A stretch of DNA of 64,000 nt from a virus (Duplodnaviria > Caudoviricetes), in the IMG/VR virus record IMGVR_UViG_3300036797_000015, positions 9,826 to 73,825 of that record; one strand, 5' to 3'. The notes under the pieces are model-generated. The model had not been told where the DNA came from. It did no database searches and saw only the letters and a list, made by a program, of their open reading frames with translations. Within the stretch, counting starts at the first letter, position 1. Each line of letters begins with the position of its first letter. Position numbers and translations under genes: made by a program. Of this stretch, positions 2,109 to 20,244 are shown in pieces.

Positions 2109-2816
2109 TTGGCAGACATTGGGAACCAAAACATCCAGGCGACAATGGAGGCTTTGGCTTGCCGCGAGACTGCGGAGTATATCATCAGCCACGAGCAGCT
2201 ATATGTGGCGGAACAAGTTGAGGGTGCCTCCGAGATAATTGACTGGTCTCTAGGCAAAGCGCCAAAGAACGGTCTATGTCTCGAATTTGGCATAGGGTTT
2301 GGCCGAACGCTCAAGCGAATCGCTGCACAACGCTATGTCCACGGGTTTGACAGTTTCAAAGGTCTACCGGAAGCCTGGCGCTCTGGACTACCTAAAGGCA
2401 CTTTCAGCAATGCCGGTATGGTCAAAGAACAGATTGTAACTAAACTTCACAACTTACATGACGAGGATGCCAGTCGTGGTGGAGAGATACATGTTGGTTG
2501 GTTCAATGAAACGCTGCCAAAGTGGATTGAATATTACCAGTTACAGCTAGAGCGTGGCATTGACTATATCCATCTTGACTCAGACCTCTACAGTTCCGCG
2601 GTGACCATCCTTGAAGGTGTTAAGGAATACCTCAAGCCGGGTAGCGTCATCCTGTTTGATGAGTACTGGAACTATCCCGGGTGGAAGCTAGATGGGCACG
2701 GAGAACACGCCGCGCTAATGGACTGGAGTATTCCCGATGTTGCTTGGGAGTACATAGGTTACAATCCTATTGGGCAAGAAGTAGCAATTAGAATGAAGAG
2801 GAATCGTGACAAATAA
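2109..2816 (+). CDS. Class I SAM-dependent O-methyltransferase, TylF/MycF-like
   Basis: LEFGIGFG, GFDSFKGLPE, GWFNETLP, IHLDSDLYSS, FDEY motifs. Confidence 0.85.
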   Translation: MADIGNQNIQATMEALACRETAEYIISHEQLYVAEQVEGASEIIDWSLGKAPKNGLCLEFGIGFGRTLKRIAAQRYVHGFDSFKGLPEAWRSGLPKGTFSNAGMVKEQIVTKLHNLHDEDASRGGEIHVGWFNETLPKWIEYYQLQLERGIDYIHLDSDLYSSAVTILEGVKEYLKPGSVILFDEYWNYPGWKLDGHGEHAALMDWSIPDVAWEYIGYNPIGQEVAIRMKRNRDK

Positions 2817-3684
2817 CCCTAGAGTGTATATCCCCAGCCGTAGCCGCTGGGAGAATGTCCCTAAGCTAACCAAAGCCTGGGACGATGAGATGTTCGATGT
2901 CGTGTTCTCTGTAGAGCCAGACGAGTTGGAGAAGTATGAAGCCGAGATTGATCGTGCTGGCGCTCGTGAGTTCGCTTCTTGTATTGCTTTGCCTGACCGC
3001 AATCTCGGTGTGGGATTTAGCCGAACATTCTGCTTAGAGCACGCCGCGAGTGATGGGCTGGAAAGCATCATCTGTTCGGACGACGACATCAAGCCGAATA
3101 CCGGCCGCAATGGCGAATCTGACGCCGGTATGGATAAGTTGATTGAGATATGTGAAGACCCGATGGTGCTTGGTTGTACCGCATATTACTCATACCTAGA
3201 CCTCATGCTCGGCATCAAGGGTAAGGATCGCAAAGACGTTATCATTGCGCCGAACTGTATTGTTAGGCTGTTCGGCCTGAACGTGAAGGAATCGCTCGAC
3301 CTTGGCGGGTTTGACGCGAGTCTGAAGTGCGGTGATGACGCTGACTTCTTGATCCGTGGTATCTATGCTGGCTTCCCGTGGCTTATCCACCTTGGCGCTA
3401 AGGCTGTCAGTTTCGCACCCAGGTTCGCGACAGGAGGTGTAGCCGCGCTGGAGGATGCTGTAAGCGTAGGCGAGGTGAAAGGCGCCAAGGGCGACGCTAC
3501 CCGCGAAGCCGTCCGCATCATCGCTGAGAAGTTTCCTGATATTGCTACTGCGGTGCGCCCAGACAAGTTAAGCTACAAGTGGCGTCAGCTATATGATAAC
3601 GAGCTACCAGACTGGAAGCATTGGTCTCCGCTACATGGCGGCAATATCAACAACTACTTTGGTGAGGGCTGGGTATGTCCGTAG
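2806..3684 (+). CDS. GT-A fold glycosyltransferase (phage base-glycosyltransferase-like)
   Basis: VYIPSRSR start, GVGFSRTFCL, SDDD (DxD), CGDDADF. Confidence 0.75.
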   Translation: MTNNPRVYIPSRSRWENVPKLTKAWDDEMFDVVFSVEPDELEKYEAEIDRAGAREFASCIALPDRNLGVGFSRTFCLEHAASDGLESIICSDDDIKPNTGRNGESDAGMDKLIEICEDPMVLGCTAYYSYLDLMLGIKGKDRKDVIIAPNCIVRLFGLNVKESLDLGGFDASLKCGDDADFLIRGIYAGFPWLIHLGAKAVSFAPRFATGGVAALEDAVSVGEVKGAKGDATREAVRIIAEKFPDIATAVRPDKLSYKWRQLYDNELPDWKHWSPLHGGNINNYFGEGWVCP

Positions 3685-4814
3685 AGACAGTAGAGCTGCC
3701 ACTACCGAAATTGCGTTCGTCTGAGCGCAATGCGTTCATGCGGTGCCCGCAGATGTGGTATTGGGGCTACGTTGAGCACCTAACGCCCAGGGTACAAAAG
3801 TACAAGGACGCAGCCGAGTTTGGCACAGGGTTCCACTTGGCGCTAGAGAACTACTACAGACCGGGGACAGTACGTGGACCGCACCCAGCAGAGACATGGG
3901 AGAAGTGGGCCGACGATACACTTAGGACCATCAAGACTTCAGAGACTGTTGACGACGAGGTTGTGGCAAAGTGGGTTAATTTTCACCAACTTGGCATTGA
4001 CTTGGCCGAAGCTTATGTCGAGCGATACCAGGGCGACCCACATTGGGATGTACTTGATGCTGAGCGTAAATTTAGTGTGCTTATACCAGATGTACGCTAT
4101 CAGCCGCTCATATCTGAAAAGGGCAGGCGCGGATACAAACCTATTGTCAACTTTGTTGGTGTCGTCGATCTATGTTATCGTGACCTCAATGATGGGTTGG
4201 TGAAGATGACTGACCATAAAACTGCTCAGCAGATTCGCACAGACCACCTAACGCTCGACACACAGGCTAGTAGCTATATCGCTGTTGCTAGCAAAGCACT
4301 TAAGGACCAGCAGCTAATCGGGCCCAAGGAATCGGTAGCCGGTATGGAGTATAACTTCATCCGCCGCACGAACCTGTGGTCTGCGCCGTTGAAAGCCGAT
4401 TATGTCGGTGCGTTAAGCAGAGCTGGTATCCAAGGCCCAAAGCCTCTAGAGAAGATGCTAAAGGCTGATCTGGAGCACCTAGCTTACATGAATGACATTC
4501 GCGTAAATGGGGAAGAAGTCGACAGAAACACGATCTTCAAGCGCCACTTTGTCCCGAGGACGCCCAAGGAACGGCAGCGCTCTATTATACGCATATCTGA
4601 GGAAGCCCGAGTCATGGCGGATGTCCGTGAGGGCAGACTGCCGATTCTAAAGCATACTCAGCGAGACTGCTACTTCTGTGCGTTCTTTGACTTGTGCGAC
4701 CTAGACGAATCTGGAGCCGACACCGACTATTTCAAGGAGTCTGTCTACATGAAGCACGATCCATACGGGGATCACGACGAGAAGAAAGCAAGCGAAAATG
4801 GTGGCGAGGCTTAA
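3675..4814 (+). CDS. Cas4/RecB-like PD-(D/E)xK exonuclease
   Basis: FMRCPQMW, GTGFHLALE, GVVDL..DHKT, C-terminal CYFCAFFDLC (1+3 Cys). Confidence 0.85.
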   Translation: MSVETVELPLPKLRSSERNAFMRCPQMWYWGYVEHLTPRVQKYKDAAEFGTGFHLALENYYRPGTVRGPHPAETWEKWADDTLRTIKTSETVDDEVVAKWVNFHQLGIDLAEAYVERYQGDPHWDVLDAERKFSVLIPDVRYQPLISEKGRRGYKPIVNFVGVVDLCYRDLNDGLVKMTDHKTAQQIRTDHLTLDTQASSYIAVASKALKDQQLIGPKESVAGMEYNFIRRTNLWSAPLKADYVGALSRAGIQGPKPLEKMLKADLEHLAYMNDIRVNGEEVDRNTIFKRHFVPRTPKERQRSIIRISEEARVMADVREGRLPILKHTQRDCYFCAFFDLCDLDESGADTDYFKESVYMKHDPYGDHDEKKASENGGEA

Positions 4815-4992
4815 AGAGAAGGGGATATCTGAGCTTCGCAACTTCAAGACCAGAGTGTTGCGTCAAGCTTCACTCAGGCGCATAAGCCAAACTGATGCTG
4901 ATGAGTTAGTTGATATGGTCAACGAGATTGAGGCTTATGTGATCAAAATGAAAGAAAAACCAATGAAACAAGAAGAGAAGGATCCATTCTGA
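4798..4992 (+). CDS. Hypothetical protein
   Basis: Coupled ORF between exonuclease and ATPase. Confidence 0.65.
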   Translation: MVARLKEKGISELRNFKTRVLRQASLRRISQTDADELVDMVNEIEAYVIKMKEKPMKQEEKDPF

Positions 4993-5921
4993 TGGCAAAT
5001 CTGGAATTGCTCGACCTGCCAGATGACATCGTAGACCTACAGGATGAGGATGAGAATTACAACCTCCTGGTCTACGCTGATTCTGGTGTCGGCAAAACGG
5101 TATTCGGCTGTTCAGACGACAGAGTGCTTGTCGTAGCGACAGAAGATGCCGGAGGTGGCGGGGGAACTATCTCCGCCAAGCGCTTTGGCAGTACGGCGCA
5201 GAAGTGGAAGGTCAAGTCGTGGACCGATATTGTGCGGGCCTACGACTGGCTGTCGAAGCAGGACCCAATCCCGTTCGATTGGGTATTTATCGACAGTTTG
5301 ACTGACGCGCAGTCAATGTGTATGCGGGATGTCTTGGAGAAGGCCACCAAGGAGAATCCGCATCGTGATCCGGATGTGCCGTTGATTGGCGACTGGCAGC
5401 CGTACTACAACAAATTCGAGCGCATGGTGAAATTGTTTAACTCCCTGCCAGTTCACTGCCTGTATTCAGCTCTACAGCAGGAGGAACAGGATGAGGAGGA
5501 AGAAACTGTAGTGCTCCCAATGCTTCAGGGCAAGGGTACGCAGTACGCCAAGAAGGTTGCTTCTTGGATGACCAGTTTCGGCAACATGCGCGTTCGTCGG
5601 CGTCCCACCGGGGAAACTGACGACGATGGCAAGAAGAAGTATGAGGAGGTCCGCGTTATTCAGTGGGCCGCTAGCAAATCCGTTATGGCTAAGGATCGCA
5701 CGCGTTGCTTGGAGCCACGCACTGTGAACCTGAACCTGAAGGAAGTGCGCGAACTGCTTGAGAGCGGTCCAAAGCCGTCTACTCAACCAGGACGTGTAGT
5801 CAAGAGGCCCAAAGCGAATGATGTTGTTCGCGACGAGCCCAAAGCAGAAGAGTCAGTGAATGGCGAATCTGAGGTCAACGAGGAAGATCTGGTTACTGCC
5901 GGAGAGGATTGGGATAAGTGA
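4992..5921 (+). CDS. AAA_24/Sak4-like ATPase (single-strand annealing protein)
   Basis: YADSGVGKT Walker A, VFIDSLT Walker B, AKDR motif; exonuclease-ATPase-SSB context. Confidence 0.8.
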   Translation: MANLELLDLPDDIVDLQDEDENYNLLVYADSGVGKTVFGCSDDRVLVVATEDAGGGGGTISAKRFGSTAQKWKVKSWTDIVRAYDWLSKQDPIPFDWVFIDSLTDAQSMCMRDVLEKATKENPHRDPDVPLIGDWQPYYNKFERMVKLFNSLPVHCLYSALQQEEQDEEEETVVLPMLQGKGTQYAKKVASWMTSFGNMRVRRRPTGETDDDGKKKYEEVRVIQWAASKSVMAKDRTRCLEPRTVNLNLKEVRELLESGPKPSTQPGRVVKRPKANDVVRDEPKAEESVNGESEVNEEDLVTAGEDWDK

Positions 5922-6616
5922 AAGTAAAGTGGGATACTGACGGCAAGGGTGTCACTGCGAGTACTGGCCGGTATGCCGGACCTGACTTGGAGAAGGGCAG
6001 TTATGTCGTCAAGTTGAAGCGCATGACCATCGTCAAGATCAAGGCTAAGGCGAGTCCCAATTTCAACAAGCCTCGCATCAACCTGATCATGGAAGTCTGC
6101 GGGCCAGATAAGGCCAGTGAGTACTTCGGACACCCGATCTTTGATGGCTTGAACATCATCGAATCTGGCCGAGGTTACGTCAACGCATTCCTCCACGCTC
6201 TGACTGACGGATCTGACAAGCAGAAGAAAGCAATCGAAGCTGCTTTCTGGCCGCCCAACGGTCCTGATGCCAAGCGCGAGAAGCGTCGCAACTCTGAGGA
6301 AACTGATCTTCATGTCAAGAAGATTGGGCCGTGGAAGATTGGGTCGCCGAATGGGGAATTGCTTCTCCAGGTGACAGCTAAGCCTGACCACGACCTCAAG
6401 GGCGCATTCCGTGCCGCTGTGACTCAGTATCTGCCCTACCAGGGCGCAGATAACCTCAGCAGCGCTGCGGACGATGATGATTTCGATGACGACGATGAGG
6501 ACTTTGTTGTTGATGCCGACGAAATTGGCGGCGATAACGACAAGCTCATCAGCGACCTCGATGCGGATGATGACGGATTTGTGGATGTTGTAGGGGACGA
6601 CGAGCCACCGTTCTGA
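5918..6616 (+). CDS. Putative ssDNA-binding protein
   Basis: Position after Sak4-like gene; very acidic tail ending DDEPPF. Confidence 0.7.
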   Translation: MKVKWDTDGKGVTASTGRYAGPDLEKGSYVVKLKRMTIVKIKAKASPNFNKPRINLIMEVCGPDKASEYFGHPIFDGLNIIESGRGYVNAFLHALTDGSDKQKKAIEAAFWPPNGPDAKREKRRNSEETDLHVKKIGPWKIGSPNGELLLQVTAKPDHDLKGAFRAAVTQYLPYQGADNLSSAADDDDFDDDDEDFVVDADEIGGDNDKLISDLDADDDGFVDVVGDDEPPF

Positions 6617-6648
6617 TTCCATGAGCGGCAGTTGAATTGAGAACGCTC

Positions 6649-6657
6649 TGCCATAAT
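6649..6657 (+). promoter_or_regulatory. Candidate extended -10 promoter (TGC-CATAAT)
   Basis: TGn plus near-consensus -10 in an intergenic gap; no good -35. Confidence 0.45.
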
Positions 6658-6679
6658 CAAAACGCGAACTCCGTACCGG

Positions 6680-6741
6680 CCTGGCGGTGAAAATCGTAAA
6701 CTGCGGTAGTGTGGAAGCTAGATCTGCGCTATTGGCCCAGG
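6680..6741 (+). ncRNA. Candidate three-way-junction leader RNA
   Basis: CCTGG/CCAGG closing stem, 4-bp hairpin, and a 12-bp hairpin (6704-6734) with five G-U pairs. Confidence 0.4.
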
Positions 6742-6767
6742 ACACCCAAACTTATACAGGAGTTACA

Positions 6768-6935
6768 ATGTCAAGGACAGAACCACACGAATTTGAACCA
6801 GTCATGATATGTGGTCACTGCCAGGGACTACACGAGGATTGTAAATGTGAAGATACCACGCCGGAAGAAACGGACGAGTGCGAAGTCTGCGGACGAGTAG
6901 AAGGTGCCAGCATTCACGAGGTGGACGACGAATGA
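6768..6935 (+). CDS. Small Cys/His-rich zinc-binding protein
   Basis: ACAGGAG RBS; HEFEP..CGHC..H..CKC..CEVCG..IH. Confidence 0.7.
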   Translation: MSRTEPHEFEPVMICGHCQGLHEDCKCEDTTPEETDECEVCGRVEGASIHEVDDE

Positions 6936-7750
6936 AGTCTGTAGCCATTTTGGGATGTGGACCAGCGGGTATGATGGCCGCACTCGCTGCGGATATGTCT
7001 GGGTGGGACTTCCGCATTTACAGCCGCAAAGTTAAGTCACCACTATACGGTGCGCAGTACTTACACAAGGAGATACCCAAGGTTGATTGTGGGCCTCCGC
7101 ATTTGGTGAAGTACGAGTTAACGGGTACGCCGGAACAGTACCGGCAAAAGGTCTATGGGCCTACCTGGGACGGTACGGTATCGCCAGAGGATCTGTCGGA
7201 TAACCATAATGCTTGGAGCCTACGCAGAGCTTACAAGCAGCTATGGCGCTGGTACAACAGCGAGATTACAGATTCGACCATTAGCCCGCTCTGGCACGAC
7301 AGTGAATTCAAGCAAGACATACTACATCGAGAATATGACCTTGTTGTAAGTACGGTACCTCGCAAGATCTGGGCAGAGCCTGGCGACGTATTTGAGTCCA
7401 CCAAGGTATGGGCGCTAGGCGACACCGAAAGTGATCGTGTACCATATAGCCTTAGACCGCCAATGTGGAGCGTACACCTTAATGGTATGCCGCAAATTTC
7501 ATGGTACAGGGTAAGCAATATCTATGGTTACTGTACGGTCGAGTGGCCATACACGCAGTATAAGGCACCACAGATGCTACAGCCTCCGCCAATATCCGGC
7601 GCTAGCATAGTGGAGAAGCCTCTGCGGCATAACAGCAAAGCCGCGAGTGACTTTATACACCTTGGACGGTACGGTGCCTGGGAGAAGGGCATACTTACCA
7701 GTGATGTATTTGACCAAGCATGGAAAGTGTTCCAGGAGGATAAGATATGA
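6932..7750 (+). CDS. FAD-dependent oxidoreductase, UDP-galactopyranose-mutase-like
   Basis: ILGCGPAG Rossmann motif, GAQYLH, VSTVP, HLGRYGAW C-terminal FAD motif. Confidence 0.75.
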   Translation: MKSVAILGCGPAGMMAALAADMSGWDFRIYSRKVKSPLYGAQYLHKEIPKVDCGPPHLVKYELTGTPEQYRQKVYGPTWDGTVSPEDLSDNHNAWSLRRAYKQLWRWYNSEITDSTISPLWHDSEFKQDILHREYDLVVSTVPRKIWAEPGDVFESTKVWALGDTESDRVPYSLRPPMWSVHLNGMPQISWYRVSNIYGYCTVEWPYTQYKAPQMLQPPPISGASIVEKPLRHNSKAASDFIHLGRYGAWEKGILTSDVFDQAWKVFQEDKI

Positions 7751-7932
7751 AGCGCAAGTTGTATTTGGTAACTACTGACAAGCATAAGAAATTTTATGTG
7801 CGCGCCAGATGGGGTGTGCAAGCCATTACTTTATGCAATAGCTTTTTGCAAACTACGATGAATCCGAGTTATGCTGGGCAATTTGCCGTAAGCGCATATA
7901 ATTGGGATGACCAGGTCGTGTTGCCAGCATGA
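7747..7932 (+). CDS. Hypothetical protein
   Basis: ATGA coupling at both ends. Confidence 0.65.
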   Translation: MKRKLYLVTTDKHKKFYVRARWGVQAITLCNSFLQTTMNPSYAGQFAVSAYNWDDQVVLPA

Positions 7933-8246
7933 GCGGCGGTAGCTACGATTACATCTGCTGGGATAGTGACTTTGAGCTCGTAGAGAAGTACAAGATGGCA
8001 CAGCTTGGTTACATGGTTGATGCTCTGCGTGCAATCGACATTGACTCACTCGCCTACAAGCGAACCAAGGTGTTGTATGATCGACTACGTGAGATTGAGA
8101 ACACTAGAGATGATGCTGACAGAGAACTACGAGAAGTCTGGAAAGCTGTCGAGTGGAGAGATAGCGGCGACTATGGTCCACGGCAAGCAATAGATGCGGT
8201 AAAGGAATATGAGCTTAAAGCAAGCAACAGACCACAAACAAGATAA
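7929..8246 (+). CDS. Hypothetical protein
   Basis: ATGA coupling; MSGGSYDYI N-terminus seen in phage proteins. Confidence 0.7.
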   Translation: MSGGSYDYICWDSDFELVEKYKMAQLGYMVDALRAIDIDSLAYKRTKVLYDRLREIENTRDDADRELREVWKAVEWRDSGDYGPRQAIDAVKEYELKASNRPQTR

Positions 8247-8394
8247 CCTTGGCTTCTGCCCAATCAATGATGGGCCTTGCGGTAAGTGCCCCCACGACCG
8301 CTATGAGCATATATTCCATGCGGCTTTTTGCCAAGAGTGTAGAAGTTGTAATTCTTGGGAATGCGCTATCTGTGGAGGTTGTGCAGATACATGA
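8209..8394 (+). CDS. Small Cys-rich hypothetical protein
   Basis: Multiple CxxC motifs; stop overlaps HAD start. Confidence 0.6.
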   Translation: MSLKQATDHKQDNLGFCPINDGPCGKCPHDRYEHIFHAAFCQECRSCNSWECAICGGCADT

Positions 8395-9026
8395 AACCAG
8401 TAGTAGCAATTGACATCGATGGGACATTAGGAGATTATCATTCCCACTTTTTGCAATTCGCTAGTGGGTGGTACGGTCGGGAGATGCCTGAAGCCTCTAC
8501 CATTAACCCAGGACTGCCCTTACACAAGTTCATGCGTACATCAAAAGCAACCTACCGGCAGTGTAAGCTTGCGTATCGTCAAGGAGGACTTGAACGGTCC
8601 ATGCCTGTCTACACAGGAGCTGCAGAACTTTGCCGAAGCGTGCGAAAAGCTGGCGCGGAACTATGGCTTTGTACCACTCGGCCTTACCTTAAGCTTGACA
8701 CCCAATCCCCAAATACCCGCCACTGGCTGAAACGTAACCAAATACAGTATGACCATATGCTATCGGGACCAAACAAATACCGCGACCTGGTGAAGAATGT
8801 ATACCCACCACGCATAGTATGTGTACTGGATGACCTGCCGGAGATGTGCGAGCAAGCTAAGAGCCTGAACCTGCTACCAGTGCTACGGGACCAACCATAC
8901 AATAGGCACTATATGGTAGCGACTGTAGCAAATATAGAAGTATTCCGCGCAATGAATATGCGGCAAGCACAGGAGATAATCTTGAAGAGAATACAAACAT
9001 GGAAGGCTGATCATGTGGAACGATAA
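8391..9026 (+). CDS. HAD-superfamily phosphatase (5'(3')-deoxyribonucleotidase-like)
   Basis: AIDIDGTL motif I, CTTRP motif II, LDDLPE motif IV. Confidence 0.85.
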   Translation: MKPVVAIDIDGTLGDYHSHFLQFASGWYGREMPEASTINPGLPLHKFMRTSKATYRQCKLAYRQGGLERSMPVYTGAAELCRSVRKAGAELWLCTTRPYLKLDTQSPNTRHWLKRNQIQYDHMLSGPNKYRDLVKNVYPPRIVCVLDDLPEMCEQAKSLNLLPVLRDQPYNRHYMVATVANIEVFRAMNMRQAQEIILKRIQTWKADHVER

Positions 9027-9585
9027 GGGTGTAGACTACCATAATCAGGTTCCTGGCGTACAACCGCACAAATACACGCCTAATATGGATGGCTACTGTA
9101 TGGTCGGCATTGGCGGTGGTGAGATATGTGGAAATAGCGATGGATTAGCACCATACCACATACAAAAATATGATGAGCGTGGCTATCCTGGGCTTGCTAA
9201 GGCAATAAGTGGATCTGTTGCGGGCGTACCACCGTATGAGCCAAAGCCATTGCCTGAAGGCCAAATTCGCGTACAGTCCGTGGACGACGTTGTGGCCGGG
9301 TGTATACGCCTAGAGATAGATGGAGCTATCTCAGAGGATGCGCGCCGAATTGTACTGGAAGTTCTCCCGGCTACCCTAGAGCTATTCCTGCGCAAAAACG
9401 CCGAATATGGTGTAGACGAGTTCAGCCTAGGACCCAAAGCCGAATTTGTCCGTATATGGAACAAAGTCCGCAAATTAAAGGCTGGATTGTGGGATAGCCA
9501 GGAGCTTGAATTTGAGCAGGTTAGTGAGATTCTTGATGATCTTATCGGCCATTTACTACTAGCCCGGTTAGGGCTAATGGGGTAA
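9013..9585 (+). CDS. Nucleotide-modification-associated (Nmad1/DUF1599-like) all-alpha NTP-PPase-fold protein
   Basis: C-terminal LFLRKNAEYG...RIWNKVRKLK...EILDDLIGH pattern. Confidence 0.65.
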   Translation: MWNDKGVDYHNQVPGVQPHKYTPNMDGYCMVGIGGGEICGNSDGLAPYHIQKYDERGYPGLAKAISGSVAGVPPYEPKPLPEGQIRVQSVDDVVAGCIRLEIDGAISEDARRIVLEVLPATLELFLRKNAEYGVDEFSLGPKAEFVRIWNKVRKLKAGLWDSQELEFEQVSEILDDLIGHLLLARLGLMG

Positions 9586-9595
9586 AGTAGTTACT

Positions 9596-10525
9596 ATGGG
9601 AAGTATGACATATGTGTCGCTTCACCACCATACTACCTTCAGCTATGGTGACGGTTATGACTTGCCTAAGAACCACGTTGAGTTCTGTGAAAATGCGGGA
9701 ATGACCGCGATGGCCGTAACCGAGCACGGTAACACTAGCTCGCACCCAGCATTGGAGAAGGCTTGTGAGGGAACCAAAGTCAAACCCATCTTTGGCTTGG
9801 AGGGATATATCGCACCCCCAGGGGAGAAGCGAAAGTGCCACCAGACAATCTTGGCCATGGACCAAATTGGCTACCAGAACCTTAACAGACTCGTTTCCCA
9901 AAGCTGGAGAGACTTCTATCAATGGCCGACGATACACCTAGATCAATTGGAGAAGTACAGTGAAGGACTCATTGTGCTTAGCGGATGCGCAGATTCCCAA
10001 CTATCGTGTACGCTGTTGGGTGGCAAGTATTACGGAGACAAAAGAGACAGTTTCTCAACTGCCGACTTTGCCAATTCCGTTAGGCTTGTGGAATGGTACA
10101 AGAGTGTTTTTGGCGACAGATTCTATCTTGAGTGCCAGAGATTTCCTGGTCTTGGTAGGACTTGTGCGCTCAATCCGGCATTCGAGAAGCTGGGCCGAGA
10201 GTGCGGAGTTGGGCTTGCTGCTACGAGCGATTGTCATTATGTCTTTGCTAGAGACAACGAGATGCAAAAGATTCTTCATGCGGCTCATCGTGGTTCTAGC
10301 GTTGACGCAGTCGCTGCGTCGTGGGAGTACGGAATCACCCTCAACATACCGGATTCCGACGAGCGCGTAATTGACGACCTGAAACAGACCGGGCTATCGG
10401 ACGATGGCGCATACGCAGCATGGATAAATACGAGCCTCATCGCTAATCGTTGTAATGTGAAGCTGCCTAAGGTAGAGCCAATCAAGTACCGCATTGATGA
10501 AAAGGACTTTGCCCCATGGGTATAG
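9596..10525 (+). CDS. dnaE: DNA polymerase III alpha, N-terminal PHP (proofreading) half
   Basis: HHHTTFSYGDG, AVTEHGN, GLEGY, HQT, LSGC, TSDCHY metal ligands. Confidence 0.9.
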   Translation: MGSMTYVSLHHHTTFSYGDGYDLPKNHVEFCENAGMTAMAVTEHGNTSSHPALEKACEGTKVKPIFGLEGYIAPPGEKRKCHQTILAMDQIGYQNLNRLVSQSWRDFYQWPTIHLDQLEKYSEGLIVLSGCADSQLSCTLLGGKYYGDKRDSFSTADFANSVRLVEWYKSVFGDRFYLECQRFPGLGRTCALNPAFEKLGRECGVGLAATSDCHYVFARDNEMQKILHAAHRGSSVDAVAASWEYGITLNIPDSDERVIDDLKQTGLSDDGAYAAWINTSLIANRCNVKLPKVEPIKYRIDEKDFAPWV

Positions 10526-10566
10526 CAATTTGGATTATCGCGGTATGTTGTATTGTTGACACATTC

Positions 10567-10641
10567 ATGAAGTTTGACCATTGGGTGTTGCCTATTTGGC
10601 AAGCTTACAAGCGTCGCAGGTGGCTCAAGCATGGCAAATAA
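10567..10641 (+). CDS. Possible 24-aa micro-ORF (MKFDHWVLPIWQAYKRRRWLKHGK)
   Basis: Open frame in the dnaE gap overlapping the next start; no RBS seen. Confidence 0.3.
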   Translation: MKFDHWVLPIWQAYKRRRWLKHGK

Positions 10642-10822
10642 GCATGAGCTAGCGGATGATGCCACGATTCGCTCTGGCAACGTATACATCGATGTTTGCA
10701 ATATTTGTAACCAAAGACCATCTGTACACTTTGATGACTTCTACGGGTACCATTGTAACTTGTGCCACTTTAAGCACCCGATGCGACGCACTACAAGCCC
10801 GTGGACAGGTGCACCATTATGA
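10631..10822 (+). CDS. Small zinc-finger protein inserted between the dnaE halves
   Basis: CNIC...HCNLCH; its TGA overlaps the ATG of dnaE-C. Confidence 0.65.
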   Translation: MANKHELADDATIRSGNVYIDVCNICNQRPSVHFDDFYGYHCNLCHFKHPMRRTTSPWTGAPL

Positions 10823-13170
10823 CAGCTCCGCAGAAGGATGATGTTGCGGCCAGAGTTGCTAAGCTAGTCGGCGCATACTCGACTGGCTCTGAGCAGATTC
10901 GACTTGGCAAGTCGAGTCCTGAGGCTATAGCACTGTTGCGGAAATGGCTTAACTTTGGTTGGGATTTCCGCATCAAGCGCACTAGGAACGCAAACCTAAT
11001 CAAAAACAAGCAGGAGTATATCAATCGTGTCGAATCTGAACTTGAGCTTATCATCAGTAAAGGCTTTGTTGACTACTTCCTCGTCACCTCTGATATTGTG
11101 CGTTGGGCGAAGGATAACAAAATTCCTGTTGGACCAGCACGCGGATCTGCAGCCGCGAGCGTCGTGTGCTATTTGCTCAGGATCACAGAAGTGGATCCAA
11201 TTCAGCACCCAAACATGCTCTTTGAGCGTTTCATCGACCCGACACGCGAAGAATTGCCCGATATTGACCTCGACTTTGACGACGAGCAACGGTACAAAGT
11301 TTTTCGTTATGCGGCACAAAAGTATGGTGTGGACAATGTCGGACATATTGGGAACTTCACACGATACCGAGGGAAGAACAGTCTAGATGATGTTGCTAGG
11401 GTATACCACATCCCGAAGTGGGAGGTTGAAACTGTCAAAGGCCTCATTATTGAGCGAAGCGGTGGTGACTCCCGCATCTCAGATTCGCTTGAGGACACTT
11501 TCATTACCTTTCAGAAGGCGCAAGATGTACTTGACAGGCATCCTGACTTGGCGAATGCGGTTCGGCTTGAAGGCAATTACCGTGGGATGGGCGTACACGC
11601 CGCGGGATTGGTTATCGCTAACGCACCTATCAATGATTACTGTGCAACGTACACCCGTGAAGTCGCAGGGCGTCCGACGAGTGTCGTGGCTTATGACAAG
11701 AAAGATGCAGCATATCTAGGCTTCCTGAAGCAGGACATACTCGGCCTTGCGACTATGGGTATGGTCGGCCACGCACTGCGAATGATAGGGATGGACCTTG
11801 AAGACCTTTACCGGGTTCCACTTACAGACCCGAAAACTCTGGCAGCTTTCAGACGTAACGATGTTATCGGAATCTTTCAGTTTGAGGGGCGAGCCACGAG
11901 GCTTGTCTGTCGTGATGTCGTACCCGACCACTTCCAACACCTCGCAGATATCAATGCTTTGTCTAGACCTGGGCCACTCTTCTCTGGTATGGCAGCAGCA
12001 TACGTTGATGTTAAACATAGCAGGAAAGAAATTGAACATTATCACCCCATCGTGGATGAGTACACTGCTGGGACGTATGGCCAGATTATATATCAGGAGC
12101 AGGTGCTACGAATAATCCGCGAGCTTGGCGGGTTCCCCATGACCAAAGTCCATGCTATCCGCCAGATTATCTCGCAGAAGCTTGGTGAGGCCCAATTTGA
12201 TAGCATGTACAAGGAGTTTGAGGAAAACGCATGTGCGAAGCACGGTTGTACTCCACAGCAAGCTCGCCGCATTTGGAGGTTCATGGCGACAAGTGCGACA
12301 TACAGCTTCAATATTGCCCATTGTATCTCTTACTCGATGCTGGCATTTTGGCAAATGTGGTTGAAGCAACACCACCCCACTGCCTTCTACGCCGCAGCGT
12401 TACGTAAGACACCTGAAGACAAGAAGACAAATCATGCCAGAAGGAATCGACTGCTTAAAGACGCCAAAAGGCATTCCGTTGAGGTGGTACCACCTGACAT
12501 CCTATGGAGCGAAGCAAATTGGTCTGTCACCGACGACGGTCGTGTGTGTGCCGGGTTTCGACAGATTCCTGGTATCGGGCCAGCTATGTCAAATGCAATA
12601 TTGGATTACTTGGATTCCAAAGACTGGGAGGCCGATCCTGCTTGGGAAGACCTCATTAACATTAAAGGCATCGGCCCCAAGACACTTGAGCGAATAACCA
12701 CTTTCGCTATGGACCCAGACCCGTTTAGCCTGGATCTGATCACAAACATGATGAAGGATTTGCGGGCTAATTTGCGGCCGGGGAACCCATACTACCTGCC
12801 TACGCCAACGCATACATCTGACACGTTACCCAGGGAGGGGAAGCATAACGTAACCTGGTGTGGTATCCCGATGATTCGTGAGTACAAGGATCTAATTGAG
12901 GATGAGCGAGCCAGGACCGGCTTAAGCGTTGAGGAGATTCTTGAAAACACCAAAGACCCGCACCTGTTGAAGTCGTGCGTGTTGAAGTGTATAGATGATG
13001 GCGATGAGGAAGTGTACATACGGTTTAACCGTTGGTACTTCCCCAATTTCGCTGACAAAATAGAAAGTCTGCGCCTAGGTGGAGCAGATGCCGTAATTGT
13101 TGAAGGGATAAAGCGTGAAGGCTTTGGGGTTAGCATACAGGCACGCGACTTGTGGGCAGTTGAGCTATGA
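10819..13170 (+). CDS. dnaE: DNA polymerase III alpha, catalytic C-terminal half
   Basis: GFVDYFL, GPARGSAA, FERF, PDIDLDFD, GVHAAG, YQEQ, YSFN.AH, HhH. Confidence 0.95.
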   Translation: MTAPQKDDVAARVAKLVGAYSTGSEQIRLGKSSPEAIALLRKWLNFGWDFRIKRTRNANLIKNKQEYINRVESELELIISKGFVDYFLVTSDIVRWAKDNKIPVGPARGSAAASVVCYLLRITEVDPIQHPNMLFERFIDPTREELPDIDLDFDDEQRYKVFRYAAQKYGVDNVGHIGNFTRYRGKNSLDDVARVYHIPKWEVETVKGLIIERSGGDSRISDSLEDTFITFQKAQDVLDRHPDLANAVRLEGNYRGMGVHAAGLVIANAPINDYCATYTREVAGRPTSVVAYDKKDAAYLGFLKQDILGLATMGMVGHALRMIGMDLEDLYRVPLTDPKTLAAFRRNDVIGIFQFEGRATRLVCRDVVPDHFQHLADINALSRPGPLFSGMAAAYVDVKHSRKEIEHYHPIVDEYTAGTYGQIIYQEQVLRIIRELGGFPMTKVHAIRQIISQKLGEAQFDSMYKEFEENACAKHGCTPQQARRIWRFMATSATYSFNIAHCISYSMLAFWQMWLKQHHPTAFYAAALRKTPEDKKTNHARRNRLLKDAKRHSVEVVPPDILWSEANWSVTDDGRVCAGFRQIPGIGPAMSNAILDYLDSKDWEADPAWEDLINIKGIGPKTLERITTFAMDPDPFSLDLITNMMKDLRANLRPGNPYYLPTPTHTSDTLPREGKHNVTWCGIPMIREYKDLIEDERARTGLSVEEILENTKDPHLLKSCVLKCIDDGDEEVYIRFNRWYFPNFADKIESLRLGGADAVIVEGIKREGFGVSIQARDLWAVEL

Positions 13171-13445
13171 GTAACCCAGCAGAACGCGCCGCGGACGAGC
13201 AGCAGAAGCGCGACCTTGCCAAGAAAGCTGGCGGGTTTATGGATGCGTTCAAGAAGGCACCGCCGTTTATGTCGGTGTCTGAGTCACTTAAGGCTTCCGG
13301 TGTGAACTATAGAGTCATGCCGGTGATGGTAGGCGACCAGACCGAGGAATGCTTGGTCGTTATCATGAATGAGATGATCGCCGGAGAATGGCGACATATG
13401 ACCGGAGGAATCGAATATGACGGACTCAGACGAGTCGATGAGTGA
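13167..13445 (+). CDS. Hypothetical protein
   Basis: ATGA-coupled ORF. Confidence 0.7.
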   Translation: MSNPAERAADEQQKRDLAKKAGGFMDAFKKAPPFMSVSESLKASGVNYRVMPVMVGDQTEECLVVIMNEMIAGEWRHMTGGIEYDGLRRVDE

Positions 13446-14379
13446 ACCAATACAGGCTTTTATCAGCCGATCTTTAAGGGATAAGCGCACGGAAGGCATC
13501 ACGAAGGATGTGGCATTTAACCGCAAGTCATTCGATGATGGCTATCCACGCAATCCCAAGGATAACCAAACGGTTCAGGTCGGAACTGATGGCATCGAAG
13601 TCAAGCTGGTACAAGGCATCAACGAAGGACAGCTTCAGACTACACTTTCGAGAGCAATTAACGCCACCATCGGGGTGGATCTACATAACCCGCCTGCCGA
13701 AGCAGACTGGGAAGAGATGCTCCAGGGTGGCCTTCAAACTGCGCTGGAGACACAGGTTATTGTCTTTGAAGTCTCCGGTGTTTCCCGCACTTGTACGCAC
13801 CAACTGGTTCGTTCACGTCGCGCTGCGTTTCACCAGCAATCTCAACGGGCACATTACTATGGTGACCATCCCGAGGTCAGGTGTCCGGAATCGGTTTGGG
13901 CTAACGATAGAGCGCGAGAAGCGTATCTGAAGGCAGTAGAGGCTAGTTGGGATGCTTACCGAATCGCATGTGAAGAGAATGTGAGCTACCAAGATGCTAG
14001 GTACACTTTGCCAGAGGCCACCACAAACTACATACTCTGCGAGTACACTATTCGGGAGTTCTTGGACGTTTACGCTTACCGTGCCTGTTCAATGTTCTCC
14101 TGGGAAATTGTATCAGTCATGCGAGCTATGGGCGCAGCTCTTACAGATGCCCACCCGTGGATGAAGAAGTATGTCAAGATCAGCTGCGAGAAAACTAGCG
14201 GTGCTGTTGATCTGGGCAAACTCGGTATGATGGCTGATGCAAGCGTGCCAGAGAATGGATATGCCCACGCGTGTACGTTCCAGGGCTGGGAGGAAGTGGA
14301 CGGACAATGCGACTTCCCGTGGGCCAGGGAGAGCAATCGCACGTTCAGGAGTAAGCAGCATGCTATCAAGCAGAAATGA
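13438..14379 (+). CDS. thyX: Divergent ThyX-like flavin-dependent enzyme
   Basis: FEVSGVSR..THQLVRSRRAAFHQQSQR, ARYTLP; several canonical residues altered. Confidence 0.8.
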   Translation: MSEPIQAFISRSLRDKRTEGITKDVAFNRKSFDDGYPRNPKDNQTVQVGTDGIEVKLVQGINEGQLQTTLSRAINATIGVDLHNPPAEADWEEMLQGGLQTALETQVIVFEVSGVSRTCTHQLVRSRRAAFHQQSQRAHYYGDHPEVRCPESVWANDRAREAYLKAVEASWDAYRIACEENVSYQDARYTLPEATTNYILCEYTIREFLDVYAYRACSMFSWEIVSVMRAMGAALTDAHPWMKKYVKISCEKTSGAVDLGKLGMMADASVPENGYAHACTFQGWEEVDGQCDFPWARESNRTFRSKQHAIKQK

Positions 14380-16662: not shown

Positions 16663-16991
16663 GAAAAGCACTGATGACTTCAACGCTGTACGAGAGACAG
16701 CCGAGATTGCCGAAGCGTTCGACATATACTCGGGTCATGTGTGTGATGGTTGCCCTGGGTGGAAGCCTAGCTGCTGCGTGTTTGAGTATGACCCAAGCGA
16801 AAGCCTCGAATAACTATTGCACCTTAGATAACCCAAGTGCCCCGTACAATTCTATCTGTACTGGCAATGGTACGTGGTGTAACTTAGGCATGCAGTACGT
16901 CTGCTCGCCCATACCGGGTATGCCAGGAACCTGGAACCCAAGAGGCTATACCCCGAGTGGTACCGATGCGACATACCCACTACTACCCTAG
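16659..16991 (+). CDS. Predicted exported Cys-containing protein
   Basis: Basic-hydrophobic leader ending AKA; four Cys in the mature part. Confidence 0.65.
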   Translation: MRKALMTSTLYERQPRLPKRSTYTRVMCVMVALGGSLAAACLSMTQAKASNNYCTLDNPSAPYNSICTGNGTWCNLGMQYVCSPIPGMPGTWNPRGYTPSGTDATYPLLP

Positions 16992-17313
16992 CGGCCCACC
17001 TTGGTGGGCGACGGTAGCCGTTCTTGGCCTAGTTGCTATGGCCTGGAAGTGGCTGCTAATACTCGTGTTTGTTCTGTGCTTCTTGTATGCTCTTGGTAAA
17101 CTGAATATGGCATACGAGGAACGCAAGCAAGCAAAGGCGTTTGAGTTAGAGAACTACAGACTCCACGCCGACCACGAAAATGAAATGTACCAGCGCTATG
17201 GCGACATCTATGGTGATTTTCCACCTGCTAGTCAGGTTTACCCGCCAGCTGGTCCGACCGGGACTGTGCCACTACCTAGGCCAGTCAACCCTGATATATA
17301 TGGAGGTTGGTAA
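16957..17313 (+). CDS. Membrane protein
   Basis: N-terminal hydrophobic segment(s), Pro-rich tail. Confidence 0.65.
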   Translation: MVPMRHTHYYPSGPPWWATVAVLGLVAMAWKWLLILVFVLCFLYALGKLNMAYEERKQAKAFELENYRLHADHENEMYQRYGDIYGDFPPASQVYPPAGPTGTVPLPRPVNPDIYGGW

Positions 17314-17720
17314 TGTCACATAGCATTGAGACGTATGAGCGCGAGGATGGTAAGCGCGGCTGGAGGATTGTGAGTGGCGGTGATGTCGTCGCTAACGATG
17401 CTGGCCAGGGCTACAATAACGAGCAGGACAGCTTGGATGCTCTGTTCGGTATGTTCTTTGGCGCATACGATGACAGCTTTCTGGAACTGTACCAGAAGTG
17501 GCAGAGCTACGCTGGTGAGAAGCCACCAGGTTCAGAGACAGGCCCGAACGTCTGGATCCAGGATGGCTCAGCGAAGCCACCTGAGGCACGCGATGCGGAT
17601 GCGCCTAACTACGAGTCTGAGACAACCGATATGGCAGAACGTACAAGCGCTGAGCGTGATGCTGAATTTGAGGCGGGGGCAGCCTTGGGTGCAAAGGTGG
17701 AGAACCAGAATGAGCAATAA
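17313..17720 (+). CDS. DUF1508/YegP-like protein with acidic tail
   Basis: YEREDGKRGWRIVSGGDVVANDAGQGYNNEQD. Confidence 0.6.
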   Translation: MSHSIETYEREDGKRGWRIVSGGDVVANDAGQGYNNEQDSLDALFGMFFGAYDDSFLELYQKWQSYAGEKPPGSETGPNVWIQDGSAKPPEARDADAPNYESETTDMAERTSAERDAEFEAGAALGAKVENQNEQ

Positions 17721-17928
17721 GGCAGAGGCGAGTGCATCAGCTTCAGGCGGAATTGGTGTCGTGGGCCTTCTTGGTGTGGCTTTTGTGGTCCTTAAGCTAG
17801 CGCACATAATCGATTGGTCTTGGGTGTGGGTGTTGGCCCCATTCTGGATTGGTGCGGTAGCCGGATTCTTTGTGCTGCTCATGGTCGTTGTGTTTATTTT
17901 GGTGAAAGCTTTTAAGGAAGTGAAGTGA
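17710..17928 (+). CDS. Small two-TM membrane protein
   Basis: GIGVVGLLGVAFVVLKL..IDWSWVWVLAPFW, a common phage family. Confidence 0.8.
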   Translation: MSNKAEASASASGGIGVVGLLGVAFVVLKLAHIIDWSWVWVLAPFWIGAVAGFFVLLMVVVFILVKAFKEVK

Positions 17929-18140
17929 AGAACTTTGACCAGATCAGAACCCGTGAAGCAATTAACATTGCTGTAACCGTAGACATTCCGGGGACAACCT
18001 TCACCAGGAGTATATCTGTTGCTCCTGACGTTGGTGAACTTGTATCTGATGTATTGAAGATAGCCCTGACAGAGTTGTGCGGGCAAGCAGTCGGTATCGT
18101 GCGAGCGGTAAGTGATGAGGTGAGAAATGCCAATGACTGA
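17925..18140 (+). CDS. Hypothetical protein
   Basis: GTGA coupling. Confidence 0.6.
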   Translation: MKNFDQIRTREAINIAVTVDIPGTTFTRSISVAPDVGELVSDVLKIALTELCGQAVGIVRAVSDEVRNAND

Positions 18141-18354
18141 TGAGGAGTTTGCTAGGGAACGCAGCAAGCGTAGGCATCCTGCCTATCTTGTGCCCAAGCA
18201 GCAGGAACTCAGAGAGAAGGGTTTGTGTGCCAGCCACGACGGCAATGGTAACCTGTGTACCAGACGCGCTAACCACCCCAAGGAAGTGATGCACGCTGAG
18301 CAGGTTATCGGCGGCGTGGATGATGGCCTGACTACAGCAGAGTGGCCATGGTAG
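18127..18354 (+). CDS. Hypothetical protein (C..C..H..H)
   Basis: Coupled ORF. Confidence 0.6.
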   Translation: MPMTDEEFARERSKRRHPAYLVPKQQELREKGLCASHDGNGNLCTRRANHPKEVMHAEQVIGGVDDGLTTAEWPW

Positions 18355-18668
18355 ATGACAACCCAGGCTATGATCCTATGGAGATTGTAGAGGCCGAACT
18401 TGACTGGGAAGTTGGCGACGACGGTAGCCTTATCGAGCTTAGCAGTGGGCTTAGGCATTACTACATATCTGAACATACTCGACCCATACTCGACGTCTGC
18501 TCAGTGGACGGAAGTGGGTTGGCTAGCCGCGAGTGCCGGGACTTACGCCACGCTTTCGATATTGCGGAAGCCTTTGAGCGCGAAGCTAAAAGAAATATCA
18601 GACGAGGTTGTACCTGGCACGGTAAGCAAATCGACGCCCAAGGACTCGCAGTTTCAGGCTTACATTAA
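18348..18668 (+). CDS. Hypothetical protein
   Basis: Short overlap with upstream stop. Confidence 0.55.
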   Translation: MVDDNPGYDPMEIVEAELDWEVGDDGSLIELSSGLRHYYISEHTRPILDVCSVDGSGLASRECRDLRHAFDIAEAFEREAKRNIRRGCTWHGKQIDAQGLAVSGLH

Positions 18669-18705
18669 AAGCCACAACGCTTGGGCCAAGGAAGTTAATG
18701 GGTAC

Positions 18706-19227
18706 ATGGTGCCAGATAACGAGTCAAAGGCGTATTGCTTAGGTTGTGACAGAGTCGTCAACGAGATATTGATGGCTTGGTGCGACTGGAACAAATCTGG
18801 TATTGTAGATGACTATCTGTGCGTCGACTGCCGCAAGGATCCACTAGAGGTTCTGCGGGAAGCTGATGAAGAAGCCCAGATAAAGCGTCTAGCCGAGCGA
18901 CGTGCGCAACATATGGAAGCGGTACGTGAAGCCGGGTACGAGAGGGTAGAGAGTAAGCCCGAGCTATGGTCAAATGGCGAGGTAACGCGCAGATTCGCAG
19001 ATCTACAGGTAGGCGTTGAGTACCCGCAAACTACGCCTGCGTATGATGCTTATATAGAGCGCAGGAGGCAACAGCGAGAATGGCGTCGTGCGCACTCTGA
19101 TAATGTAGACAAGAGCTACATACTGGTAGATGGCACGCGTATGGTGAAAGTGCTAGAGCAAGATGGCAAGGTAAGATATGTTAGACCGGCAGTAGACGAT
19201 ATGGAACCACCGGAGGTATATACATAA
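18706..19227 (+). CDS. Hypothetical zinc-ribbon protein
   Basis: AAGGAAG RBS; CLGC..CVDC; start trimmed from track ORF 18400. Confidence 0.65.
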   Translation: MVPDNESKAYCLGCDRVVNEILMAWCDWNKSGIVDDYLCVDCRKDPLEVLREADEEAQIKRLAERRAQHMEAVREAGYERVESKPELWSNGEVTRRFADLQVGVEYPQTTPAYDAYIERRRQQREWRRAHSDNVDKSYILVDGTRMVKVLEQDGKVRYVRPAVDDMEPPEVYT

Positions 19228-19562
19228 TGACTGACGCTTGGGCAAACTTTGGTAAGCACAAACACCGGCCCACTGTTGAGGATGGTAGGCGAGTCTGTAT
19301 GGACTGCCACCAAGTACTCATTGACCCGATACTGACTGCGGACGACCCACGCATTCCAGAGGTCAAGCCGCTACCATGGCAGGAAGATGGGTTTAACCCG
19401 CCACTGCCGTATGTGTTGGTAGAAATGTATGAGCGCAACCTAATGCCAGCAGCGCCATACATTGAAGTTGTATCTGCTTGCGAGCACCCCAGTAACATCA
19501 ACGAATGGCTATGGGTATTCTATGACCTTGGCCAAGGCAAGAAGGTGGGCGCTGATGACTGA
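19227..19562 (+). CDS. Hypothetical protein
   Basis: TAATG coupling. Confidence 0.65.
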   Translation: MTDAWANFGKHKHRPTVEDGRRVCMDCHQVLIDPILTADDPRIPEVKPLPWQEDGFNPPLPYVLVEMYERNLMPAAPYIEVVSACEHPSNINEWLWVFYDLGQGKKVGADD

Positions 19563-20244
19563 TGAACGCCTGGGCATGTTCGATGGCTTTAAGCCTGTAG
19601 GCAAGATATCTGATAGCAAGGAAACACTACAAGAGTTTGTGGCTGACCTACAAGCAAAGTACCCAGACATACAGTACAAGATAACGCCACAACAAGAGGA
19701 ATTGGTTAAGCGGTTCCAGGAACTCAAAGAGACCAGTGGCGGTGGGATAACATACCCAAGTCTGGGCATACAGCAGCGCAAGATCACCGTTGATATGCCA
19801 AACATTAGTGAGGAACTGGCCGAGATAATCTTTGGCAGCAAAGTCATTGACCCAGAACCTGAGATGGTACACATATACATGAGACCAGGTATCGAAACTG
19901 TACGCAGTTGCTTCATTGGCGGCCCAAATGATGGTAAGCTAATCGTGGTGCCGCGTGGGCAATTTACTATTGAGTATAATGTACCAGAACCAGCAGACAT
20001 AGACTTTAACGTGCCTCGTGGTGATGAAAAACTACAGCCTGTATTTGACAAGATACGTGTTAGCAGGCACACTTACCATGCTACGTCGCTGTGTTTGGGT
20101 AGCACCGCAGAAGAGTTTATTGTATTTGTACACGAGAGCATCAGGGAACTGGGTGAGGGGCTAGCAGAACGGGCTATAAAGATCTTGACTTGGCACGAAC
20201 GCCACAAGTCCAAGGAGGAAGAACTTGAAGACTGGGATTGGTAA
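19555..20244 (+). CDS. Hypothetical protein
   Basis: Coupled ORF; FIGGPNDG motif common in actinophage proteins. Confidence 0.65.
   Translation: MTDERLGMFDGFKPVGKISDSKETLQEFVADLQAKYPDIQYKITPQQEELVKRFQELKETSGGGITYPSLGIQQRKITVDMPNISEELAEIIFGSKVIDPEPEMVHIYMRPGIETVRSCFIGGPNDGKLIVVPRGQFTIEYNVPEPADIDFNVPRGDEKLQPVFDKIRVSRHTYHATSLCLGSTAEEFIVFVHESIRELGEGLAERAIKILTWHERHKSKEEELEDWDW

Follow-up and report, generated by a model that had tools for sequence, protein, structure and literature searches.

We analysed a 64,000-nucleotide stretch of DNA of an uncultured virus resembling actinophages (the window; bases 9826-73825 of the complete 73.8-kb IMG/VR phage record IMGVR_UViG_3300036797_000015), in which a preliminary description had joined six enzyme genes of the replication region into one pathway for glycosylating a modified DNA base. 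We found that this locus consists of two evolutionary units and not of one six-gene pathway. The first unit, comprising a small flavoprotein, a HAD phosphatase, an Nmad1-like protein, the polymerase DnaE and a ThyX variant that has lost its signature histidines (His-less ThyX), is a lineage-wide cassette. The second, a coupled pair of genes for a methyltransferase (MTase) and a glycosyltransferase (GT), is an optional add-on that has repeatedly landed in the DNA-metabolism module. As a tentative reading, in which our confidence stops somewhat short of even, we propose that the cassette makes a modified pyrimidine, to which the GT would add a sugar after replication, and that the MTase would then O-methylate this sugar.

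Two evolutionary units in one locus

To compare gene content among relatives, the window proteins were run by tblastn over 95 fetched loci, 65 of which extend 9 kb or more upstream of a ThyX-like gene. Within these 65 loci, the flavoprotein was found in 63 and the HAD protein in 62, with the HAD gene directly following the flavoprotein gene in 61. The same cassette order was observed in the cultured phages Onyinye, Streptomyces phage Yara, Nova (cluster D) and Gordonia phage Patos, and the flavoprotein is present in 126 cultured actinophages in GenBank. By contrast, the GT profile matched only three of the 50 ThyX-bearing IMG/VR records (three of the 30 near-complete ones) and was not found in Onyinye, Nova, Patos or Yara. 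The MTase is more restricted still among relatives, accompanying only the closest GT homologues, where it lies directly upstream of them.

GT homologues occupy three positions, namely upstream of Cas4 (in the window and in L005, L011 and P0294), between Cas4 and the AAA ATPase (L008, L095), and between the flavoprotein and the HAD gene, with overlapping stops and starts and a short-chain dehydrogenase (SDR) gene after (L088). All three insertion positions fall inside the replication, recombination and nucleotide module. GT homologues were also found together with two different Thy1 types, one in the window and the other in L008, and a more distant relative (27% identity) lies between genes for an SbcCD-like nuclease and a radical SAM enzyme. 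Several GT relatives sit on contigs too short for gene context to be read, and a search for related loci with P0148 and P0155 gave none. Since the GT is scattered, rare and found at three positions, we regard it as an optional add-on to the module.

This distribution separates what the preliminary description had joined. The six open reading frames (ORFs) that it had listed are all present in the ORF listing, with the starts it had given and on the + strand; their shared orientation is real but uninformative, since the long ORFs forming the gene string of the window all lie on that strand. It is in the conserved synteny of four of these genes that the arrangement goes beyond chance. The prediction of co-occurrence across actinophages thus held for the core cassette, which is co-inherited, and failed for the GT, which is absent from the four cultured phages named above; a single six-gene pathway is not compatible with a cassette that is found in nearly all relatives while its GT is found in so few. 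Likewise, with the GT rare and the cassette near-universal, the flavoprotein is not a dedicated sugar supplier for the GT, and we rejected the idea that it serves the GT only.

The arrangement in L088 is compact: at 16673-19709 of that locus, the genes for the flavoprotein, a TAGT-family GT, the HAD protein and the SDR follow one another with ends that overlap or abut. The SDR may tailor a sugar there, as the MTase may do here. Small enzymes also occur between the HAD gene and DnaE or ThyX in Nova (L096, 10425-12197) and in Patos (L097, 11025-12912 and 17184-17813), where we observed a Methyltransf_11 protein, a FabG-like SDR and a MazG-like pyrophosphatase. Small tailoring enzymes seem to have a hot spot in this stretch.

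The ThyX-bearing cassette

The ThyX-like gene (13438-14379, +) encodes a predicted flavoenzyme, the window's type A of Thy1 protein, that matches Pfam Thy1 with 99.5 bits and thereby passes at the level of the fold family, yet it scores below the cut-off of the NCBI thyX equivalog TIGR02170 (76.3 versus 87.9). We aligned the family profile of this variant to the ThyX proteins of M. tuberculosis and C. glutamicum and found that H69L, H75T, H96S, S100A, Y108A, H203M and R209V are replaced (M. tuberculosis numbering, window residue second), whereas R87, H91, R95, R97, Q103, S105, R107, R172, R190 and R199 are retained. The ThyX signature RHRxxS...SxRY and the GH/LEH histidines are not kept. The retained residues presumably serve to bind dUMP and the phosphates of FAD; the flavin/folate/NADPH side of the site is presumably lined by the histidines that are lost.

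The altered site is conserved across a subfamily of more than 930 homologues. Among the 28-35 members that were aligned, the motifs GGLQTALET, THQLVRSRRAAFHQQSQRA, YQDAR and YAYRACSMFxWEI are near-invariant, as are four cysteines (C224, C257, C286 and C298), which suggests a metal site. Some members additionally bear CxxCxGxG DnaJ-like zinc-finger inserts or long inserts rich in cysteine and histidine. The alignment supports the view that the window protein is an atypical ThyX belonging to a conserved subfamily, in agreement with the preliminary description. In Nova, Patos and L008 its place is taken by a second Thy1 type (RQR...STRF), which likewise lacks the RHR and LEH histidines. We had considered that the flavoprotein might occur without any Thy1 protein, and rejected this, as Nova and Patos carry the second type.

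The flavoprotein gene (6932-7750, +) encodes a small FAD/NAD(P) Rossmann protein of 272 residues, assigned to phrog_8720 (E 9e-97), in whose sequence only the GCGPAG (GxGxxG) Rossmann motif is recognisable. It had been described as UGM-like. No match to the UGM domain GLF (PF03275) was found in the genome at E<=10, whereas control genomes matched, and the family profile aligned with PDB entries through Rossmann motifs only. At the level of fold the description fares better: the AF2 model (pLDDT 92) has as its best solved neighbour the UGM 4dsg (Z 14.8, root-mean-square deviation 3.9, 259 of 272 residues), followed by a tie at Z 12.7 among another UGM, MHPC oxygenase and PhzS, with further UGMs at 12.3-12.7. 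The entry 4dsg thus leads the flavin monooxygenases and oxidases by about 2 Z. Foldseek ranked VioD, D-amino-acid oxidase and UGMs alike, the Atlas TM values were alike for amine oxidases and UGM, and the protein is 100-200 residues shorter than UGMs, which have 365-473 residues. UGM-like therefore appears to be the best description of the modelled fold, and is meant at fold level only.

The HAD gene (8391-9026, +) encodes a predicted phosphatase of the NT5C (pyrimidine deoxyribonucleotidase) type, which exceeds the NT5C cut-off (26.7 versus 24.8 bits) and whose DIDGT fits the DxDxT catalytic motif, in line with its earlier naming as a nucleotidase. The PHROG name of the family is 'polynucleotide kinase', and the Nova homologue is annotated as a deoxyribonucleotidase. 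The ORF that follows (9013-9585, +) is the one that had been called Nmad1/DUF1599-like. It gave no hidden Markov model (HMM) match in Pfam, in NCBIfam or in a direct search with PF07659 (E<=10); for residues 107-190, however, the Atlas (feature score 0.90, with structural matches that are weak) leads to DUF1599 clusters, so that the C-terminal 85 or so residues are a possible Nmad1/DUF1599 (MazG-like) domain, one that is variably kept in the cassette. Overall, four of the six labels of the preliminary description hold at HMM level, that of the flavoprotein holds at fold level and that of the Nmad1-like protein is retained as a lead; its observation that HAD and Nmad1-like functions accompany ThyX was borne out.

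The replicative polymerase of the cassette is of the DnaE type and is split (9596-13170, +; Pfam PHP, DNA_pol3_alpha and finger domains) into a PHP ORF (9596-10525) and a core ORF (10801-13170) separated by a gap of 275 nt. DnaE is likewise split in Onyinye, where a small ORF occupies the gap, and is a fused gene in Yara, Nova and Patos.

These genes may also be read as an ordinary, if divergent, unit for thymidylate supply and pool sanitising, made up of a dTMP synthase, a nucleotidase, a pyrophosphatase and a flavin partner, in which case the GT and MTase would act on a target that is neither DNA nor virion, for instance a small molecule or the glycans of the host envelope. The intact nucleotide-binding residues of ThyX, the rarity of the GT and the inheritance of the cassette with the replication module in many cultured phages with no reported modification are all consistent with this. 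On the other hand, all signature histidines and the EIR arginine of ThyX are replaced, and strongly conserved in that replaced state; a dNMP nucleotidase beside a dTMP synthase would work counter to supply; tailoring enzymes (MTase, SDR, TAGT) recur within the cassette; and the Pbunaviruses, in which thymidine is modified, have a counterpart set (PMC12191111). We consider plain thymidylate supply rather unlikely, although it keeps real weight beside the proposed base modification.

The coupled methyltransferase and glycosyltransferase and their surroundings

The GT gene (2806-3684, +; P0002) encodes a protein that matches the Pfam TAGT family PF20691 with 41.6 bits (cut-off 27.5), over its N-terminal half only (residues 7-96, profile positions 3-90 of 205), and that PHROGs assigns to phrog_842, beta-glucosyl-HMC-alpha-glucosyltransferase. 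Eighteen close homologues were identified, nearly all of which carry PF20691; a profile search of 1.84 billion representatives returned 234 relatives, and a further word-indexed search gave mostly the same close family. An SDDD motif (S91-D92-D93-D94), which supplies the DxD, is invariant across the family alignment. The AF2 model (pLDDT 89) has a GT-A fold. Its neighbours among solved structures are generic GT-A enzymes (TM 0.5-0.6), and a search of the PDB with the GT profile gave no relative by sequence. Among viral models (BFVD) the best matches were TAGT-annotated proteins and a beta-glucosyl-HMC-alpha-glucosyltransferase, and in the Atlas a viral TAGT cluster came out on top (TM 0.74 over residues 2-292), the best viral and Atlas matches being TAGT clusters with TM values of 0.62-0.74. 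Collectively, the Pfam score above cut-off and the match of the modelled fold over the whole length support membership of the TAGT family and not of the generic GT-A enzymes. The GT-A label of the preliminary description is thereby confirmed and narrowed.

The MTase gene (2109-2816, +) lies directly upstream and overlaps the GT gene by 11 nt, in a run of translational coupling that continues with an overlap of 10 nt between GT and Cas4. Its product, an S-adenosylmethionine (SAM)-dependent enzyme by prediction, exceeds the Pfam cut-offs of both Methyltransf_24 (37.8 bits) and TylF (31.5 bits) and belongs to phrog_6608 (E 8e-35); a search of NCBIfam gave no match. Within GenBank phages it is most closely related (about 36% identity) to cluster-S O-methyltransferases encoded beside glycosyltransferases and to the C-terminal domain of Che8 gp108; in Che8, two glycosyltransferase genes come after gp108, and the MTase is fused to a GT and not, as in the window, a separate, coupled gene. 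Together these matches support a predicted sugar O-methyltransferase, as had been suggested earlier from the TylF likeness. The kinship with the Che8 and cluster-S enzymes supports a sugar O-methylase and equally sustains a different target, since the MTase-GT pair may build an O-methylated glycan on the capsid, the tail or another phage protein, with the ThyX cassette as an unrelated nucleotide supply.

Such a protein target draws on several observations that weigh against a DNA target. The closest phage kin of the MTase fall in the glycosyltransferase gene set of Che8 (gp108-110), in a non-structural region of an actinophage as in the window, and glycosylation of Che8 virions has been reported (PMC11256854, citing Freeman 2023). 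The GT is acidic (isoelectric point 4.8), which is unusual for a DNA-binding enzyme. GREB1, a eukaryotic TAGT relative, is an O-GlcNAc transferase that glycosylates protein (PMC7968844), and the TAGT family is therefore not DNA-exclusive. A separate GT/MTase pair is also encoded next to the tail and lysin genes of Yara, a related phage (L002, 21169-23373). Neither member of the Yara pair is detectably related to the pair in the window.

Other evidence points away from virion glycosylation. The GT had no tblastn match in any GenBank phage, the Che8 glycosyltransferases included, to which it is thus not detectably related. The fold neighbours of the GT are TAGT and beta-glucosyl-HMC-alpha-glucosyltransferase proteins, and its homologues recur amid genes of replication and nucleotide metabolism, in one case with the flavoprotein gene on one side and the HAD gene on the other. 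Moreover, the major capsid and tail proteins match their family profiles from one end to the other, and the lack of extra tails on the capsid and tail tube proteins counts weakly against a Che8-like model. We judge a protein target for the pair to be unlikely, though credible.

The closest characterised enzymes act on DNA. TAGT enzymes glucosylate DNA, on 5-hydroxymethylcytosine (5hmC), in TET clusters (PMC8256090), and a second DNA glucosyltransferase of the T6 type, from phages without TET, has been assigned to this Pfam family as well (PMC13390438); the T-even TAGT works without TET on a base that is made before replication (PMC13390438). The window GT resembles the T2/T6 and TET-associated enzymes (PMC13390438, PMC8256090) in its PF20691 match, in its GT-A fold with DxD, and in being phage-encoded among DNA-metabolism genes. 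It differs from them in that it fits the Pfam model in the N-terminal half only, is without a tblastn match in GenBank phages, has a sugar O-methyltransferase as its partner, which those systems lack, and sits in a phage without TET, C5-methyltransferase or a ThyA-type hydroxymethylase.

The substrate of the T6-type TAGT is glucosyl-hmC and not the base itself (PMC13390438), and it is conceivable that the GT of the window acts apart from the ThyX cassette, glycosylating a nucleotide or some DNA feature that is canonical or made by the host, for example by extending a sugar placed by an unrecognised enzyme. The occurrence of GT homologues with two Thy1 types also fits an independent enzyme. However, searches of the complete 73.8-kb record revealed no TET/JBP (PF12851), no ThyA (PF00303), no C5-methyltransferase (PF00145) and no second GT. 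We know of no precedent for TAGT action on unmodified DNA. A GT independent of the cassette therefore seems very improbable to us. With TET/JBP, ThyA and C5-methyltransferase all missing, the His-less ThyX cassette is the sole candidate source of an acceptor base, as the proposed modified pyrimidine would require.

The two units are embedded in a replication and recombination region. An SNF2 helicase gene just upstream of the window is followed by small ORFs, the MTase and GT genes, a Cas4/PD-(D/E)XK exonuclease gene (3675-4814, +; PDDEXK_1, 67 bits), which provides the context of a recombination module, an AAA_24/RecA-like ATPase gene (4992-5921, +; Pfam AAA_24, 76 bits) and an ORF (5918-6616, +) for a protein resembling single-strand DNA-binding (SSB) proteins. 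Next come the flavoprotein gene, three small ORFs, the HAD gene, ORF 9013-9585 and the PHP and DnaE ORFs, after which a small ORF, the ThyX-like gene, a RuvC-like gene, a primase-helicase gene and the packaging and structural genes follow. Megablast of the region against GenBank phages gave no match.

Two of the neighbouring ORFs deserve comment. ORF 5918-6616 has no Pfam hit and follows the RecA-like ATPase gene; its long acidic tail (...DDDDFDDDDEDF...DDEPPF) resembles the C-termini of bacterial SSBs. PHROGs names its family (phrog_9460) 'methyltransferase', an assignment that we ruled out on the grounds of the SSB-like acidic tail and the lack of an MTase motif, and the protein is probably a single-strand DNA-binding or recombination protein. 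Near the start of the window, a 324-residue ORF (6-980, +) gives weak MarR/HTH matches, below the Pfam cut-offs, in its last 50 residues.

Known hypermodifications and a possible route

To place the cassette among phages with modified DNA, we compared it with systems of known or proposed chemistry. The pbunaviruses F8 and 14-1 (also PB1) contain a sugar-like hypermodified thymidine whose nucleosides have masses of 362 and 390; the modification, to which no gene has been linked, is found in TG context and on about one thymidine in four (PMC12191111). In Pseudomonas phage 14-1, gp66 is a Rossmann flavoprotein whose match to the window flavoprotein family reached 76% probability by hhalign (E 2e-5, 134 columns), and gp60, a His-less ThyX with RTR for RHR (and with FEF and SRA), matched at 98.4%. 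A C-terminal stretch of the HAD protein gp58 aligns weakly (BLASTP E 0.057) with the DUF1599-lead region of ORF 9013-9585. The counterpart genes of 14-1 lie beside a gene for a DnaE-type polymerase, which is 38% identical to the window DnaE, the rest of the counterpart set being only remotely similar, and the Pbunavirus set differs in having no GT or MTase. These alignments suggest that the cassette has a distant counterpart in phages with a reported sugar-like thymidine modification.

Two further systems share parts of the proposed chemistry. Bacillus phage SP-15 contains glucosylated 5-(dihydroxypentyl)uracil and encodes two Thy1 proteins, one of which has been proposed as a hydroxymethyl-dUMP synthase (PMC5977210). 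It resembles the window phage in its Thy1-family proteins, and its uracil carries a polyol side chain bearing sugars (PMC5977210); it differs in being a jumbo myovirus that has a 10-gene carbohydrate cluster of its own, and its gene assignments are hypotheses (PMC5977210). In RB69, DLP3 and RL38JI, flavin-binding ThyA homologues make 5-hydroxy-dCMP, which is later glycosylated on DNA (PMC13326640). Here, too, an enzyme of a thymidylate-synthase family has been repurposed with flavin, and RL38JI also encodes UGM (PMC13326640). Unlike the window phage, these phages use ThyA homologues on dCMP together with GT-B glycosyltransferases, and have dedicated dNMP kinases and sugar-nucleotide genes (PMC13326640); neither of these last two kinds of gene was found in the window phage.

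The modification that we favour would arise in two layers. In the first, the cassette would remodel the pyrimidine pool or the DNA, converting part of the thymidine to a C5-modified uracil bearing hydroxyls; the HAD and Nmad1-like enzymes would clear away the canonical nucleotides that compete with it, and DnaE would incorporate the modified nucleotide. In the second, after replication and with a host nucleotide-sugar as donor, the TAGT enzyme would glycosylate a hydroxyl of the modified base or of a sugar-like side chain, and O-methylation of the added sugar by the TylF-type enzyme would follow. The outcome would be a bulkier modification that may block restriction and other nucleases.

Further points count against this route. 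No GT was matched in 47 of the 50 cassette-bearing records, and the link between cassette and GT therefore rests on position only. The functions of both layers are predictions, and the ThyX variant may simply make dTMP. No modification has been reported for the cultured phages that bear the cassette, and no dNMP kinase was seen in the genome. The Pbunavirus modification occurs at TG sites only (PMC12191111), and the T6 TAGT acts on a sugar already on the DNA, while a first GT that would place one is absent here.

A more daring version concerns how the base itself might be made. UGM chemistry forms a flavin-N5-sugar iminium, and in ThyX chemistry a carbon bound to flavin N5 is handed to uracil C5. 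The UGM-fold flavoprotein and a ThyX without its folate site might alkylate dUMP, or uracil in DNA, with an aldose instead of methylene-folate, yielding polyol- or C-glycosyl-uracils whose side chain the TAGT enzyme and the O-methyltransferase would then extend. By arithmetic, the Pbunavirus nucleoside masses of 362 and 390 fit dU with a pentitol chain and dU with a hexosyl ring, respectively. We regard this version as quite improbable.

If the two-layer modification is correct, a large and mostly soil-borne group of actinophages, easily grown SEA-PHAGES isolates included, would contain a modified thymidine that has so far gone unrecognised and that arises by a ThyX-derived route; in a few members, a TAGT enzyme working without TET would attach an O-methylated sugar as well. 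This would extend the known chemistries of phage DNA hypermodification, supply candidates for the genes behind the Pbunavirus modification and bear on restriction evasion, on the sequencing and cloning of these phages and on the choice of phages for therapy.

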